A stretch of 25,319 bases of DNA from the IMG/VR virus record IMGVR_UViG_2648501787_000014, one strand, 5' to 3'. Position numbers and translations under genes: made by a program. Below are positions 3,422-14,589 of the stretch, one piece after another. The notes under the pieces were generated by a model. That model saw only the letters and a list, made by a program, of their open reading frames with translations. It was not told the DNA's origin and did not search any database. Each line of letters opens with the position of its first letter. Within the stretch, counting starts at the first letter, position 1. Source of the DNA: a virus. Lineage: Duplodnaviria > Heunggongvirae > Uroviricota > Caudoviricetes.

Positions 3422-3855
3422 GCAGAATAACCGCGATTATCTCCGCTCTGGTTATCTGCATCATCGTCTGCCTGTCATGGGCTGTTAATCATTACCGTGA
3501 TAACGCCATCGCCTACAAAGAGCAGCGCGATAAGGCCACATCCACAATCGCTGACATGCAGAAGCGTCAACGTGACGTAGCAGAACTCGATGCCAGATAT
3601 ACAAAGGAGCTTGCTGATGCTAACGCGACTATCGAAAGTCTCCGTGCTGATGTTTCTGCTGGGCGTAAGCGCCTGCAAGTCGCCGCCACCTGTGCAAAGT
3701 CAACGACCGGAGCCAGCAGCATGGGCGATGGAGAAAGCCCAAGACTTACAGCAGATGCTGAACTCAATTATTACCGTCTCAGAAGTGGAATCGACAGGAT
3801 AACCGCGCAGGTTAACTACCTGCAGGAGTACATCAGGACGCAATGCCTTCGATGA
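3418..3855 (+). CDS. Rz: Rz i-spanin (inner-membrane spanin subunit)
   Basis: N-terminal TM segment ([16 protein letters not shown]) then coiled-coil; N-terminus close to lambda Rz; overlaps the R stop. Confidence 0.9.
3617..3802 (+). CDS. Rz1: Rz1 o-spanin lipoprotein, embedded in the +1 frame of Rz
   Basis: Embedded ORF with signal peptide and lipobox ([20 protein letters not shown]) and a Pro-rich mature region; start taken at the internal Met (track ORF begins at 3590). Confidence 0.8.
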
Positions 3856-4029
3856 TAGCGATAATTTTACTCATCATCCTTCACATCTGGCTCTGTAGGC
3901 AGGGTGGTGAACACTTCTGGAGTGAATCCGGATTAAATATCTCATTGCTGATGCTTGATATTGAGCATCTGGCGCGCGGTAAGGGGCTGCGTTGAGATAA
4001 GGGCCAGTCATTACAAATACCAGGATTTA

Positions 4030-4053
4030 GCCTCGCATTTGCGGGGCTTTTTT
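4030..4053 (+). terminator. Intrinsic terminator downstream of the lysis cassette
   Basis: Stem gcctcgc (4030-4036) / gcggggc (4041-4047), loop attt, then TTTTTT (4048-4053). Confidence 0.6.
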
Positions 4054-4199
4054 ACATCTGCAGTAAACCGCGCATCGCAGCGCGTAACAATCCCGAGTCT
4101 TTCAGAAAGCTGAGCCTGAGAACTGCCGTATATGGTGGCGACCATCTCGGGGCGGCTTTTCTGTGCGAACAGGCTCATCTTTCTAAAAGGTAAGACGCT

Positions 4200-4721
4200 A
4201 TGAATATCGTTCCACTAAATTACAAAGGCGAACCTATCCGCTTCAATACTGATGGCTGGATTAATGCCACTGATATTGCAAAACGTTTCGGGAAGCGTCT
4301 GGATCACTGGTTGTCCAACGCTGAAACTCTCGAATACGTTAGAGCTCTGGATGAGGTTTATTCAGGTGAGCCATCGAAAATTCTACATACCCGTGATTCC
4401 GGGTATGTAAAAACAAGCAAGGCACGAAAGGACAGGGGCGGCGGAACATGGCTGCATCCAAAGTTATCAGTTGCCTTTGCAAGATGGTGCGATCCGAAAT
4501 TCTCCGTATGGTGCGACCTGCACATTGATAGTCTGCTTCGCGGTGAACTGACTGAGCAGCAGAAATATGAGCAAGCATGTCGCATTCGCGATGACCGGAA
4601 ATCAAAAGCCAGCAATGGGGCAAGAGAGATGGCTCGCTGGCGATGGGATAAGCCGGTTATTGAAGCAAATGTCGAGTACTGGCGCGAGCAACTGCAGTTG
4701 ACTCTCGATATCGCGTGCTGA
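4200..4721 (+). CDS. KilA-N domain DNA-binding protein
   Basis: N-terminal region with KilA-N-like motifs (NATDIAKRFGK ... GTWLHPKLSVAFARW); RBS aaaagg upstream. Confidence 0.6.
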   Translation: MNIVPLNYKGEPIRFNTDGWINATDIAKRFGKRLDHWLSNAETLEYVRALDEVYSGEPSKILHTRDSGYVKTSKARKDRGGGTWLHPKLSVAFARWCDPKFSVWCDLHIDSLLRGELTEQQKYEQACRIRDDRKSKASNGAREMARWRWDKPVIEANVEYWREQLQLTLDIAC

Positions 4722-5078
4722 TGGCAAACGCAAAACTGCGTTATCGGAAAAATCAAAGCATTACGAGAACTGAGCAACGGCTATCCATTACAAAGCCCAT
4801 CTACGGGTGGGCTTGATAATGAAACCGGAATTTATTCTTGGCAACCAGTTACGGCAGTACCACGAAACAACCCAAGCCAGTAAGTGGGGAAATAACACTG
4901 GCAGCCACTGAAAGATGAACCTCCAGCCTTATGGCAAAAAAGATTCTTTGTGGTGGCGGACTGATGGAAAGACATCGGTTATTGCAGAGACCATTCAATG
5001 AGTGGTCTCGACAATGGCTTATACCCTACACGGGATAACTTAACTGATATCCCTTTTAACGGATAAACGGAGCCAACA

Positions 5079-5321
5079 ATGGCAGAGATTATTCCCATGA
5101 CTGAAGAACAGAAATTCCAGTTAGAGATTTACAAACTGGTCATGAACCAGAACGCAGCCGCAGAGGAAGCATTTCAATTCATCGGCACTGACGAGCTGAA
5201 GCTTGAACTATTCAAAATTCACTTCCAGTCAGGCGGCGCTAATTCAGATATCACGATCCGCACATTCGAAGCGGTGCGTAAATCGAAGGAAGCGTTAGAC
5301 CTGTTCACTACCGGAGCATGA
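5079..5321 (+). CDS. Hypothetical protein (80 aa)
   Basis: GGAG RBS 6 nt upstream of the ATG; stop overlaps the next small ORF; no family recognised. Confidence 0.5.
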   Translation: MAEIIPMTEEQKFQLEIYKLVMNQNAAAEEAFQFIGTDELKLELFKIHFQSGGANSDITIRTFEAVRKSKEALDLFTTGA

Positions 5322-5322
5322 T

Positions 5323-5502
5323 GTGAGCCGCGTAATCAATTTGGGTAAGGAGAAGAAATTCCCAATTACTCAAGAGCTATACGAGCGGCTGGAAATCGTT
5401 ATCCATGATTACGATGGTGAAATCAGTTTATGCGAGGCGATTGGCACACTCGAATTGCTGAAGCAGTCACTGATTGAAGGCGCGAAAGAGTCCTCAACCT
5501 GA
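5323..5502 (+). CDS. Hypothetical small protein (59 aa, GTG start), translationally coupled to the upstream ORF
   Basis: GTG at 5323 preceded by GGAG (5312-5315); translates to VSRVINLGKEKKFPITQELYERLEIVIHDYDGEISLCEAIGTLELLKQSLIEGAKESST; not in the ORF track. Confidence 0.35.
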   Translation: MSRVINLGKEKKFPITQELYERLEIVIHDYDGEISLCEAIGTLELLKQSLIEGAKESST

Positions 5503-10562: not shown

Positions 10563-11816
10563 ATGGCTAACCAATTAGCAAAAGACCTTGAAATCATGTT
10601 CGAAAACTACGTTGAAGGCTTTGAGGCCGCCTGCGTAGTTTCCCGTAACGCTAAAAAATTCCGTCCCGGTGATACAGCAATGCAGCGAGCAGGTGATGTT
10701 CTGTATCGTCCGCAGCATTACCACATGAACATTGAGGAGGGCCTAGACCTCAGCGGCAAAACGCCAACAGCACTGGTTCAGCGCCTTGTTCCTTCTGTGT
10801 TCAAGGAGCCGAAAAACATTCTGTACACTCTGGATGCGCGTGAAATGCGTGACCCGGAACATAAAACTGAAGCTGGTCGCGCCGCAGGTATGCGCCTTGC
10901 TGCACAGATTGACTCGGACCTGATTTCCATGGTCACGCAGCGTGCTACTAACGTGATCACGATGGCTGACTCAACCACAGGCACACAGGGCCGTGATTTG
11001 TGGAACTGTGCGGCAGGTATTGATGCCACCATGACGGCGATTGGTGTACCGCAGGGTATCAATCGTCGCTCTTTCTGGAACCCCTTCAACCACAAAGACC
11101 TTGCTGGCGAGCTTGGTCACCGTGCCTATGCTCAGGGCGCAACCCTGACAGCATACGAAAAAGCGCAGATCCCTCCGGTTGCTTCCTTTGATAGCTACAA
11201 GACCGATATTTCTGGTCGATTACCGAAAGGAAGCGCTGAATCCTTGACAGTATCAGGCCAACCTGAACACAAGGTTGAAGCGAAAGATTCAAATGGTATG
11301 CCAGTTGATAACCGACAGGGGACTATTACGGTATCTGCATCTGGCTTGCAGGTTGGTGATGCGTTCACCATTGCCGGTGTGAATTCCGTACACCAGATCA
11401 CAAAAGATACCACCGGGCAACCGCAGGTATTCCGTGTTCTGGCTGTTAGCGGAACTACCGTAACAATCTCTCCAAAGATTCTCCCTGTTGAAAATACCGA
11501 TGTTGCGAGTCGTCCATATGCAAACGTCGATGCCAAACCGGCAGAATCAGCAGCAATCACCATTCTCAACAAGAACGCAGCACCTGCTAACCTGTTCTGG
11601 GCTGATGGTTCTGTTGAGCTGATGTACGGCAAACTGGCGTTCCCGACTGGTCAGGGTCCACAGGTAATGACGGCAACCACCGAGCAGGGCGCTACGCTGA
11701 TCATGTCTTACTCCTTCGACCACATCAAAGGCGTAACCACTGCGCGTTTCACCACTCTGTACGGTTGCTCTGTACTGGTTCCTGAATATACGGGCATCGT
11801 TATTGCCGGGCAGTAA
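10563..11816 (+). CDS. Major capsid (coat) protein (P22 gp5-like)
   Basis: 417 aa; shared motifs with P22 coat (e.g. FWADGSVELM vs FWADDAIRIV); followed by a strong terminator. Confidence 0.85.
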   Translation: MANQLAKDLEIMFENYVEGFEAACVVSRNAKKFRPGDTAMQRAGDVLYRPQHYHMNIEEGLDLSGKTPTALVQRLVPSVFKEPKNILYTLDAREMRDPEHKTEAGRAAGMRLAAQIDSDLISMVTQRATNVITMADSTTGTQGRDLWNCAAGIDATMTAIGVPQGINRRSFWNPFNHKDLAGELGHRAYAQGATLTAYEKAQIPPVASFDSYKTDISGRLPKGSAESLTVSGQPEHKVEAKDSNGMPVDNRQGTITVSASGLQVGDAFTIAGVNSVHQITKDTTGQPQVFRVLAVSGTTVTISPKILPVENTDVASRPYANVDAKPAESAAITILNKNAAPANLFWADGSVELMYGKLAFPTGQGPQVMTATTEQGATLIMSYSFDHIKGVTTARFTTLYGCSVLVPEYTGIVIAGQ

Positions 11817-11857: not shown

Positions 11858-12046
11858 ATGGCACGAACAATGCTCTATAAGCCGGGCAACATGATCACCT
11901 GTGGTCAGTTTGCTGTCGATTACATCATTGTTGATGACGAAGAAGTTAAATCTCACCTGAAAAAAGGCTGGGTAAAAACTCCTGAAGAAACCGCAACGAA
12001 GCATAAAGTGGCTAAGGCGGAAGAAGATGGCGAAAACGAAGGGTGA
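11858..12046 (+). CDS. Hypothetical small protein (62 aa)
   Basis: ATG at 11858 with gggaga RBS; 3' end overlaps the gp4 start; no family recognised. Confidence 0.35.
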   Translation: MARTMLYKPGNMITCGQFAVDYIIVDDEEVKSHLKKGWVKTPEETATKHKVAKAEEDGENEG

Positions 12047-12488
12047 TCTCGTTCTTAAGGCTTTACGAAAAGCCGGGCTGTATTCCAATGCCACGTTGAC
12101 AGATGCTGACCCTCAGGCAATTGAAGATGCCATTAATGACCTCGAAGACATGATGGCAGCATGGCAGGCTAAAGGTATCGAGCTTGGATATCAGTTTGCT
12201 GATACAGAAAACGGCATCATGCCGTTACCTGACGATGATTCAGGTATCCCTGCGTGGGCAAATGATGGCGTCGCTTTGAAGCTCGCTGTGCAAGTGTGCA
12301 TGGATAACGTCATTCAGCCGTCAGATGCTCTCCTTACCGCTGCTGACAGCGCATATCAGACAATCTGCATCGCTTTAACCAAAATACCACCACTTGAGCG
12401 GCGAAATGACATGCCTCGCGGTAGTGGTAACAAAAGCGCGTTTACGTGGAATCGGTTTTACATCGAGAAAGATGATCCAAGTACGTGA
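12027..12488 (+). CDS. Head-to-tail adaptor / tail accessory factor (P22 gp4-like)
   Basis: 153 aa; N-terminus KTKGDLVLKALRKAGLYSNATLTDADPQAIEDAINDLEDMMAAW resembles P22 gp4. Confidence 0.85.
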   Translation: MAKTKGDLVLKALRKAGLYSNATLTDADPQAIEDAINDLEDMMAAWQAKGIELGYQFADTENGIMPLPDDDSGIPAWANDGVALKLAVQVCMDNVIQPSDALLTAADSAYQTICIALTKIPPLERRNDMPRGSGNKSAFTWNRFYIEKDDPST

Positions 12489-12497
12489 GGTGAATAA

Positions 12498-12602
12498 ATG
12501 CCGATTCAGCAACTTCCGCTTATGAAAGGTGTCGGCAAAGACTTTCGAAACGCCGACTATATCGACTATCTGCCAGTGAATATGCTGGCAATTTTGATAT
12601 AA
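12498..12602 (+). pseudogene. Orphaned 5' fragment of gene 10 (34 codons; first 31 are gp10-like), cut off by the homing-endonuclease insertion
   Basis: Encodes [31 protein letters not shown] then ILI-stop; the same N-terminal peptide reappears, recoded, at the start of the intact gene 10 at 13171. Confidence 0.7.
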
Positions 12603-12638
12603 TAAGTACATGAAAAATCGAAACTTTAAGGAGTAGAT

Positions 12639-13223
12639 ATGCTTTCTGAGAATGCTAAAGATATACCTGGATTTGAAGGTGTTTATGCCGTAACAGAAGA
12701 TGGCAGGGTATATTCTCACTCACGTGTTGTTAAGGCTGCGCATGGCAGCACGCAACTCAGAAAGGGGCGCTGGTTAAAGCCTAAAATCAATCAGGGAAGG
12801 GTGCTTTATAATATCGGAGCAAAATGGACTTTTGCCCATCGAATCGTTGCAATGACATTCCTGCCAAATCCTGAAAACAAGCCTCAGGTAAATCATATTG
12901 ATGGCAATCCACTCAATAATAACGTCAATAATCTTGAGTGGTGCACTCAAAGCGAAAACATCAAACATGCATACGCCACCGGATTAAAGAAACCAATCAA
13001 GTTTTTCGGAACCAAGCACCCAAAACACAAGTTGAGTGATGACGATGTTCTTGCAATCAAGTCATCAAAAGAAAGCTTGTCAGTAATTGCGGCTAAGTAC
13101 GGGATATCTAAGACCTGGGCAAGTAGGCTAAAGCGTGATGCTAACTGGGTTCATATAAAGGTTGATTCCAATGGCAATACAACAACTACCACTAATGAAG
13201 GGATTGGGGAAAAGTGCGGTTAA
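12639..13223 (+). CDS. HNH homing endonuclease (NUMOD4 + HNH_3-type, with C-terminal HTH)
   Basis: IPGFEGVYAVTEDGRVYS (NUMOD4-like) and HRIVAMTF...VNHIDGNPLNNNVNNLEWCTQSEN (HNH) motifs; aaggag RBS; inserted within gene 10. Confidence 0.85.
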   Translation: MLSENAKDIPGFEGVYAVTEDGRVYSHSRVVKAAHGSTQLRKGRWLKPKINQGRVLYNIGAKWTFAHRIVAMTFLPNPENKPQVNHIDGNPLNNNVNNLEWCTQSENIKHAYATGLKKPIKFFGTKHPKHKLSDDDVLAIKSSKESLSVIAAKYGISKTWASRLKRDANWVHIKVDSNGNTTTTTNEGIGEKCG

Positions 13224-14589
13224 TGCTGATTATATAGACCAACTTCCAGTCAATCTTTTAGCTACGCCCAAGGAGGTGTTGAATTCATCGGGATATCTTC
13301 GCTCATTCCCGGGCATTGCCAAACGTTCTGATGTGAACGGCGTATCGCGAGGCGTCGAGTACAACATGGCGCAGAGTGCTGTTTATCGCGTGTGTGGTGG
13401 CAAGCTGTACAAAGGAGAAAGTGAAGTTGGTGATGTTGCCGGAAGTGGTCGCGTATCAATGGCACATGGTCGGACATCACAGGCGGTAGGCGTTAATGGT
13501 CAACTGGTCGAATACCGCTATGATGGCACGGTTAAAACCGTCTCAAACTGGCCTACGGACAGCGGATTCACGCAGTATGAGTTAGGTTCGGTCCGTGACA
13601 TTACGCGTTTACGTGGGCGTTATGCGTGGTCAAAAGACGGTACTGATTCATGGTTTATCACTGACCTTGAAGACGAATCGCATCCTGACCGCTACAGCGC
13701 ACAATATCGGGCAGAATCGCAGCCGGACGGTATCATCGGCATCGGAACATGGCGAGATTTCATCGTCTGCTTTGGTTCATCGACGATTGAATATTTTTCC
13801 CTGACTGGTGCAACCACCGTTGGTGCCGCTTTGTATGTCGCACAGCCATCACTAATGGTGCAAAAAGGAATCGCCGGGACTTACTGCAAAACGCCATTCT
13901 CTGATTCATATGCGTTCATCAGCAATCCGGCAACAGGTGCGCCGTCTGTGTACATCATCGGCTCCGGTCAGGTGTCACCAATCGCCAGTGCGAGCATTGA
14001 GAAAATCCTCCGCTCCTACACTGCTGATGAACTGGCTGATGGCGTGATGGAATCGTTGCGGTTTGATGCTCATGAGTTGCTGATTATCCATCTTCCGCGT
14101 CACGTCCTCGTGTACGACGCATCTTCAAGCGCCAATGGTCCGCAATGGTGTGTGCTTAAAACAGGCCTGTATGACGATGTGTACCGCGCTATCGACTTCA
14201 TTTACGAAGGCAATCAGATAACGTGCGGCGATAAGCTGGAATCGGTGACCGGGAAATTGCAGTTCGATATCAGCAGTCAGTATGGGCTTCAACAGGAACA
14301 CCTTCTGTTTACTCCGTTGTTCAAAGCGGATAACGCCAGATGCTTCGATCTGGAGGTGGAATCGTCCACTGGCGTAGCTCAGTACGCCGACCGCCTGTTC
14401 CTCTCTGCGACCACTGACGGCATAAATTACGGTCGTGAGCAGATGATTGAGCAGAATGAACCGTTCGTTTACGACAAACGCGTTTTGTGGAAGCGAGTCG
14501 GGCGCATCAGGAAAAATGTCGGCTTCAAATTGCGCGTTATCACGAAGTCACCTGTCACTCTGTCTGGCTGCCAGATAAGGATTGAGTAA
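13171..14589 (+). CDS. Tail hub / packaged-DNA stabilisation protein (P22 gp10-like), intact copy
   Basis: 472 aa from ATG 13171 (track ORF begins at a TTG at 13162); N-terminus [14 protein letters not shown]...; synteny gp4-gp10-gp26. Confidence 0.85.

Follow-up and report, generated by a model that had tools for sequence, protein, structure and literature searches.

A probable free-standing HNH homing cassette that restarts its target gene in P22-like phages

Introduction

How can a homing endonuclease gene colonise an essential coding sequence and leave that sequence in working order? The usual answers are introns and inteins. The question is raised by a 25,319-nt stretch of tailed-phage DNA (IMG/VR record IMGVR_UViG_2648501787_000014), hereafter called the window, in which an HNH endonuclease gene lies inside tail gene 10, behind one copy of the first codons of this gene and in front of another. 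A preliminary description of the locus, made from its letters, had proposed that a mobile endonuclease brought along a cleavage-resistant copy of its own target flank and in this way preserved the function of the gene 10 product, gp10. We followed up this proposal by comparing the window with endonuclease-free relatives, with diverged relatives of the endonuclease and with a set of occupied loci. These comparisons make it likely that the element, some 710 bp long and situated within gene 10 directly behind codon 31, is a homing cassette that carries a free-standing HNH gene of I-HmuI type and restarts its target. Coordinates are those of the window unless a locus number precedes them, and all window features named below are on the + strand.

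Results

Gene 10 starts on either side of an endonuclease gene

The coordinates given in the preliminary description hold for all parts of the locus. The stranded 5' end of gene 10 occupies positions 12498 to 12605. It has the native ribosome-binding site (RBS) and ATG, comprises codons 1-31 (12498-12590) and, as had been noted, runs into an in-frame stop, here after three read-through residues, ILI (TAA TAA, 12600-12605). The endonuclease gene follows (12639-13223, 194 aa), with AAGGAG at 12628-12633 as its RBS; a GGAGTAGAYATG motif is kept at this place in all lineages. An intact gene 10 (13171-14589; gp10, 472 aa) restarts within the endonuclease gene, its ATG lying 9 nt from a putative RBS (AAAGG, 13157-13161). 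The 3' end of the endonuclease gene and the start of the intact gene 10 overlap by 53 nt in different frames, in agreement with the earlier reading.

The intact gene matches the Pfam family Phage_stabilise over its full length (E=1.4e-296). The stranded open reading frame (ORF; 12498-12602, 34 codons) matches positions 1-28 of the same family (E=7e-11), and its first 75 nt are 99-100% identical to the gene 10 start of endonuclease-free phages; these two results exclude a chance resemblance to gene 10. Given the in-frame join described below, gp10 is made from the restart at 13171, and the resident codons 1-31 are left as a dead-end ORF of 34 codons.

A megablast search found the same arrangement in Salmonella phage UPF_BP1, and many P22-like phages without the middle 673 bp. 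Alignment with the P22-like alleles of P22 and Kapi1, which the preliminary description had called for, sets the insertion at 12591-13263 (673 bp), exactly between codon 31 (GCN) and codon 32 (ACA), the sequences being otherwise collinear. The endonuclease-free relatives (P22, Kapi1, Escherichia phage HZ41, four Escherichia coli prophages and Proteus phage Brookers) have one gene 10 start and lack the duplication, so that its proposed tie to the insertion stands. UPF_BP1 has P22-type sequence in gene 4 upstream and in the stranded copy, whose first 75 nt are those of P22, together with a cassette that matches the window's at 99% identity. Thus, one cassette occurs in both E. coli-type and P22-type gene 10 backgrounds. 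The junction coincides with the end of a native inverted repeat, TGCCAGTG-AATA-TGCTGGCA (12571-12590), which falls within the candidate recognition region discussed below. In occupied alleles the repeat is followed by ATTTTG, which gives it a weak terminator-like shape.

The endonuclease resembles I-HmuI

The claim of a free-standing HNH gene is borne out by Pfam matches of the 194-aa protein to HNH_3 (E=1.9e-10, 40.6 bits, cut-off 24.8) and NUMOD4 (E=1.3e-8, 35.3 bits, cut-off 23.4), and no intron accompanies the gene (see below). By sequence, the nearest solved structure, and the only significant PDB match, is that of I-HmuI (PDB 1U3E, E=1e-8), with 26% identity. Residues H86, N98 and N107 align with H75, N87 and N96 of I-HmuI, which are the general-base His, a structural Asn and a metal-binding Asn of the HNH motif; D74 of I-HmuI corresponds to N85. 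In an alignment of 44 homologues N85, H86, N98, N107 and H110 are invariant; proper alignment therefore leaves the enzyme with the catalytic residues on which the earlier proposal depended. An AlphaFold model of the protein (predicted local distance difference test, pLDDT, 85.9) places strands within residues 16-65 and three helices within 134-165. With this model, Foldseek returned 1U3E as the only significant PDB match (E=2.3e-6); the 179 aligned columns take in the helical DNA-binding part at the C-terminus. Pfam, the model and Foldseek together place a beta-rich NUMOD4 region at the N-terminus and a helix-turn-helix (HTH) at the C-terminus. The window protein is thus predicted, by sequence and by modelled fold, to be an I-HmuI-like HNH (beta-beta-alpha-Me) enzyme of NUMOD4-HNH-HTH order.

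Residues 177-194 of the endonuclease are those coded by the overlap with gene 10 (13171-13223). They are predicted to be disordered (pLDDT <50) and are absent from paralogues at other sites. This C-terminal tail is probably an incidental read-through into the replacement start and not a functional extension.

In HZ41 (L003, 2946-3491) one such paralogue, a 181-aa NUMOD4-HNH gene, occupies precisely the interval from the stop of gene 10 to the start of gene 26, and the same gene is found there in about 17 E. coli prophages. That site has no stranded fragment, but HZ41 has a diverged gene 10 3' end. The leader of the paralogue (AAATCGAAAC..GGAGTAGATATG) and the first ~150 nt of its ORF are 80-97% identical to the window sequence at the nucleotide level, after which the two diverge. 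By this comparison the HZ41-type and window endonucleases look mosaic, with a common 5' module and different DNA-binding parts.

I-HmuI is the homing endonuclease of group I introns in the phages SPO1 and SP82. This relationship of the nearest solved relative, together with an insertion placed exactly in frame between codons 31 and 32, is what one would see if gp10 arose from a message in which the upstream codons 1-31 had been spliced to codon 32. The locus is built otherwise. The non-coding flanks of the endonuclease ORF measure only 48 nt before and 40 nt after it, which is too short for an intron core, and a second ATG, an RBS and a full alternative set of codons 1-31 are kept in all lineages, although they would be pointless within an intron. 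Where the stranded copy is frameshifted (LD39-1) or ends at codon 26 (contig L017), gene 10 is still intact. Splicing is accordingly a most improbable source of gp10. An Rfam scan of 12300-13500 at E<=1 found no intron match; it gave only a sub-threshold match to MicA, on the other strand, and a group I intron was excluded.

The working start is a diverged allele linked to the endonuclease

According to the preliminary description, the two starts specify the same peptide in different, AT-richer codons. The duplication of the first 31 codons is real, but the peptides differ: they agree at 24 of 31 residues, and the copies at 59 of 93 nt (63%), and the changes from stranded to working copy are P2A, V12L, DFR15-17SAV, Y24Q and M29L. 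The difference in codons is as described. Sixteen of the 22 conserved codons able to change synonymously are changed, the GC content is 38.7% in the working copy vs 47.3% in the stranded one, and the longest run common to both is 8 nt. The tract had been taken to consist of codons 1-31, and these are indeed included; however, it outlasts the duplication. Codons 32-42 are diverged too, and normal similarity returns from ~13297. The foreign 5' segment is thus 13171-13296, made of duplicated codons 1-31 (13171-13263) and co-converted codons 32-42 (13264-13296). Directly downstream of the insertion the window has ACG CCC AAG GAG GTG TTG AAT TCA TCG, and empty alleles have ACA CCC AAA GAA ATC CTG AAC AGC AGC. 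The segment joins the resident gene 10 body in frame.

Searches for a source of this segment returned little. With blastn in distant mode, 13150-13300 matched UPF_BP1 as the sole record among 50,697 phage records. With tblastn, the first 57 residues of the working gp10 found no endonuclease-free phage with that N-terminus; the nearest was Salmonella phage SEN22 (90% over residues 18-57), which has only part of the working copy's variants. The comparison of sequences shows that the stranded copy is resident and that the working copy, at 63% identity to resident alleles, is foreign and endonuclease-linked. The replacement start is best seen as an anciently diverged foreign allele hitch-hiking with the endonuclease, rather than as the fresh recoding that the preliminary description had in mind.

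The restarted gene is annotated as an intact coding sequence (CDS) in all the cassette-carrying E. coli prophages retrieved and is also present in UPF_BP1. As an isolated phage, UPF_BP1 demonstrates that virions are produced with the restarted gene 10.

The arrangement is kept by diverged endonucleases

Relatives of the window endonuclease came up in a protein search at identities of 83, 82, 71 and 68%, all of them between gene 4 and gene 10 of other P22-like phages. These 68-83% lineages are known from just six contigs (L017-L022) in four lineages, with hosts placed by gene 10 similarity alone. The layout recurs in every diverged lineage: first a stranded gene 10 start (26-34 codons), next the endonuclease, and last an independent, complete start of gene 10 overlapping the 3' end of the endonuclease gene. 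RBS-like purine runs precede the working ATG in all lineages. The gene 10 bodies are ~70% identical to those of E. coli and Salmonella phages; the gene 10 of L017 is nearest to Proteus phages (72%).

The separate origin of the two starts is again apparent in these lineages. Identity to the endonuclease-free Brookers allele is 79% for the stranded copy of L017 and 57% for its working copy. Working copies are closer to each other than to stranded copies, as for the window vs L021 (83%). A single pair of codons distinguishes the two classes throughout: at codons 29-30, every stranded or empty allele has AAY ATG YTG GC (NML-A), and every linked copy has AAT CTT TTA GC, CTG TTA or TGC TTA. These comparisons show an old architecture, conserved across endonucleases that differ by up to ~30% in protein.

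L017 has features of its own. Its gp10 (3560-5353) is ~570-597 aa long, as in Proteus phage Brookers, and its stranded copy has only 26 codons, with additional T-rich sequence between it and the conserved leader, which suggests a later deletion or rearrangement at the left junction. A profile scan of representative genomes with the endonuclease alignment gave no confirmed locus, and an IMG/VR scan returned endonuclease matches that were either 99-100% identical or at <=51% identity, with nothing between.

Population data delimit a mobile unit

The endonuclease-positive set consisted of 32 loci: the window, UPF_BP1, 8 E. coli prophages and 22 IMG/VR contigs. The prophage survey proposed in the preliminary description disclosed presence/absence polymorphism at one fixed site among collinear gene 10 alleles. 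The cassette is in 18 of 5426 complete E. coli genomes, and gene 10 of this type is in ~919, so that ~2% carry the cassette. A working-type start without the endonuclease was seen in none of the 5426 genomes. In all 32 loci the insert begins at the same junction, GCA followed by ATTTTGATAT(A/G)AT (core, GCA followed by ATTTTGATATAAT); upstream of it lie gene 4 3' ends of four kinds that cannot be aligned with one another, and stranded copies of 19 different alleles. The stranded copy follows the resident allele in every locus.

Nucleotide diversity (pi) in the 32 loci is 0.006 across the insert and the foreign codons (a unit of ~710 bp); the stranded copy reaches 0.039 and the gene 10 body 0.057-0.115. 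On the left, the last resident polymorphism (12585, C/T) is 6 nt from the junction and is the same CTG/TTG variant as in empty alleles. On the right, the first polymorphism is at 13308, ~12 nt beyond the end of the diverged DNA at 13296. Together, pi values and edge polymorphisms define a mobile unit of approximately 12591-13300, which comprises the leader, the HNH gene, the foreign codons 1-31 of gene 10 and codons 32-42. A trough in GC (0.39-0.43) coincides with this unit; downstream, GC is 0.50-0.55. Altogether, the linkage, the low diversity, the in-frame join and the viability of UPF_BP1 uphold the proposal that a mobile endonuclease brought a copy of its target flank and that gp10 was kept.

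One junction in all loci also points to a single founding event, and with it to another history: a fossil duplication from one old illegitimate recombination, inherited vertically and shuffled by mosaic exchange, the endonuclease being inactive or irrelevant. P22-like phages are highly mosaic, as the four gene 4 types upstream of the cassette attest; only ~2% of the prophages with this gene 10 have the cassette, and one endonuclease copy is frameshifted. A fossil would not be expected to retain its catalytic residues and full ORF across lineages down to 68% identity, nor to be tenfold less diverse than flanks that differ by 5-12%, nor to occur at 99% identity in both E. coli-type and P22-type gene 10. 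The edges of the low-diversity tract, within 6 nt (left) and ~12 nt (right) of diverged DNA, are predicted by repeated targeted conversion and would be odd for random crossovers. We regard the fossil as unlikely and homing as the better account.

Individual copies show decay, as expected for a selfish element. In E. coli ES5 (L005, 1249-1832) the endonuclease gene is broken into two ORFs by a 1-nt deletion, the stranded copy of E. coli LD39-1 (L009, 1107-1200) has a +1 frameshift, and the stranded copies of L030 and L041 carry non-synonymous singletons (R17L and P2T, respectively).

A candidate target and a proposed mechanism of spread

Within the first 200 nt of gene 10, no run is longer or better conserved between Kapi1 and Brookers than CTGCCAGT.AA.ATGYTGGCNACACC.AAAGA. 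In occupied alleles the insert interrupts the candidate site at the stranded copy, and in the working copy the site is altered at codons 29-30 (all five lineages). We propose that the enzyme would nick or cut an endonuclease-free gene 10 near the codon 31/32 boundary, at a candidate site made of CTGCCAGTGAATATGYTGGC directly followed by ACACCNAAAGA, and that repair would then copy the cassette from an occupied donor genome. The recipient's own codons 1-31 would pair with the donor's stranded copy to form the left arm, and the gene 10 body beyond ~13297 would form the right arm. The foreign start would be immune through its change at codons 29-30 and, in the window lineage, at codons 32-40 as well. 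The founding event would have been a single illegitimate join, since the junction is common to all close copies and, approximately, to the diverged lineages.

Repair by homology arms would account for a stranded copy that is, in each occupied genome, the genome's own allele, and also for the presence of the cassette behind four unrelated gene 4 types. On the evidence of these alleles, the left homology arm is probably provided by the stranded copy. Function of gp10 is supplied by the foreign start, which probably also confers immunity to cleavage. Because the repeats are 63% identical and share no run longer than 8 nt, recombinational (loop-out) loss of the cassette should be prevented.

Several points weigh against this interpretation. 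Target site, cut position and immunity are all inferred from sequence. Between P22 and Kapi1 the insertion site ranks in the top 17-24% of 45-nt windows, which is moderate conservation. I-HmuI is a nickase that cuts intron-containing DNA as well, so immunity need not be absolute. Mosaic recombination of the flanks around a vertically inherited cassette could give a similar diversity trough without homing. Finally, the KEV and NAS/TCA-TCG variants in codons 32-40 are natural in SEN22 and Brookers; part of the apparent recoding is thus mere lineage divergence.

The leader and possible roles of the stranded ORF

TGATATAAT (12595-12603), which follows directly on the junction and shares positions with the stop codons that end the stranded ORF, is a perfect extended -10 motif. 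The motif TG[AC]TATAAT is kept in the leader of all five diverged lineages, and L028 (IMG/VR) has TGATATGAT. A two-hexamer sigma-70 promoter scan of 12300-13500 called no promoter, TGATATAAT included. To judge by its conservation, TGATATAAT may be a promoter of the cassette's own.

The leader motif is also the only hint of a further explanation, compatible with homing, in which the cassette has been co-opted: the 34-aa gp10 peptide would hinder the tail assembly of competitors, or an endonuclease expressed from its own promoter in lysogens would cut incoming endonuclease-free P22-like phages. The stranded copy does retain its native RBS and ATG and an open ORF of 26-34 codons in nearly all loci and lineages. 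An intact stranded ORF can, however, be explained by its renewal from a functional resident gene at each homing event, and its length varies (26, 30, 32 or 34 codons); it is frameshifted in LD39-1 and carries the non-synonymous singletons of L030 and L041. The putative promoter motif was missed by the promoter scan, and a cassette found in ~2% of the prophages with this gene 10 is rare. We consider co-option quite unlikely. A role in packaging, as for terminase-associated HNH proteins, was rejected: the cassette occurs in only ~2% of prophages with this gene 10, far from the terminase genes, and its protein is I-HmuI-like.

Genomic context and annotation of the locus

By its ORFs and Pfam matches the window represents late-region DNA from a P22-like phage or prophage, with the large ORFs on the + strand. 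The late ORFs identified are a 417-aa ORF (10563-11816), which occupies the coat gene position of annotated relatives, gene 4, gene 10 and gene 26. Gene 4, coding for the tail accessory factor gp4 (12027-12488; Pfam P22_Tail-4, E=7e-41), is the upstream context of the mobile unit and lies outside it.

The stranded fragment and the internal restart give rise to annotation errors at this locus. In E. coli genomes the Prokaryotic Genome Annotation Pipeline of NCBI labels the pieces as a pseudogene (the stranded copy), an HNH endonuclease and gp10. In UPF_BP1 (L001, 2283) the GenBank gene 10 CDS begins at an internal ATG, downstream of the true restart codon. The gene 10 of SEN22 (L023, 1949-2040) carries one additional nucleotide near codon 17, and its annotation begins at an internal Met; the insertion may be a sequencing error or a real defect.

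Discussion

The cassette has features in common with several known systems and differs from each. It resembles I-HmuI and I-HmuII, the NUMOD4-HNH-HTH enzymes of the Bacillus phages SPO1 and SP82 (1U3E), in domain order, in HNH residues and in full-length fold, and members of this family likewise occupy a fixed site in a conserved phage gene. Unlike them, the window locus has no intron; the function of the gene is restored by a second start with duplicated codons. We know of no free-standing phage endonuclease that leaves a stranded start of its target gene and supplies a replacement start.

Among free-standing phage endonucleases, SegF, SegG, SegB and MobE of T4 and F-CphI of a cyanophage (psbA) also adjoin their target genes (references in PMC8351571). 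The likeness extends to a sequence linked to the endonuclease that differs at the presumed site, to co-conversion of flanks and localised marker exclusion, and to presence/absence polymorphism among close relatives. Those endonuclease genes, unlike the present one, sit between genes or divide a gene into two working pieces, as mobE does with nrdA in Aeh1. In mycobacteriophage Omega, a free-standing HNH insertion is likewise tied to a remodelled end of the neighbouring gene, with a 35-bp loss and a new lysin A 3' end (PMC3706429). This is a single case, and in it a duplicate, a stranded copy or a replacement segment is not described (PMC3706429).

The nearest architectural precedent is the fungal mitochondrial endonuclease ORF with a foreign C-terminus. 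Such mORFs occur in atp6 of Allomyces macrogynus (Paquin et al. 1994), in atp6, atp9, cox2 and nad3 of Glomus and in cob and atp6 of Endoconidiophora (PMC3630166; PMC6279837). The mORF brings a diverged duplicate C-terminus that is joined in frame, and the native end is left nearby as a remnant; the native copy is 91-98% like close relatives and the inserted, foreign copy 64-81% (PMC3630166; PMC6279837). The window shares with these elements a foreign gene end in frame and a displaced native end that resembles relatives. The 3' end is duplicated there and the 5' end in the window, in mirror image, and because of this the window cassette must supply an RBS and a start codon, not a stop. The fungal enzymes are GIY-YIG or LAGLIDADG and reside in organelles; the present one is HNH and resides in phages and prophages, and it is not fused in frame to the host gene. 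The cassette thus works like the fungal hybrid-gene elements, yet is not a member of that group. A full-text literature search found no description of this arrangement in phages; its coverage was incomplete and the absence is not proof. By the literature searched, the 5'-end restart version in a phage is new, and it is built from known parts.

The locus shows another solution, in a tailed phage, to the problem of colonising an essential coding sequence, namely a diverged replacement start combined with translation restart. With a unit of ~710 bp and a candidate target of ~35 bp, it is a compact natural system for homing, for the limits of co-conversion and for a built-in homology arm, and P22 and Kapi1 are tractable recipients.

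A broader idea, which we put forward tentatively and with more doubt than conviction, is that the self-contained gene-restart cassette represents a third way, besides introns and inteins, in which an endonuclease gene can inhabit an essential coding sequence. The stranded start would be renewed at each invasion and act as a portable left arm, the diverged start would give immunity and at the same time block loop-out, and the TGnTATAAT motif would give expression independent of the late operon, possibly from the prophage. If this is true, the portable left arm makes homing independent of the highly mosaic gene 4, and an endonuclease expressed from the prophage could attack incoming endonuclease-free P22-like phages.

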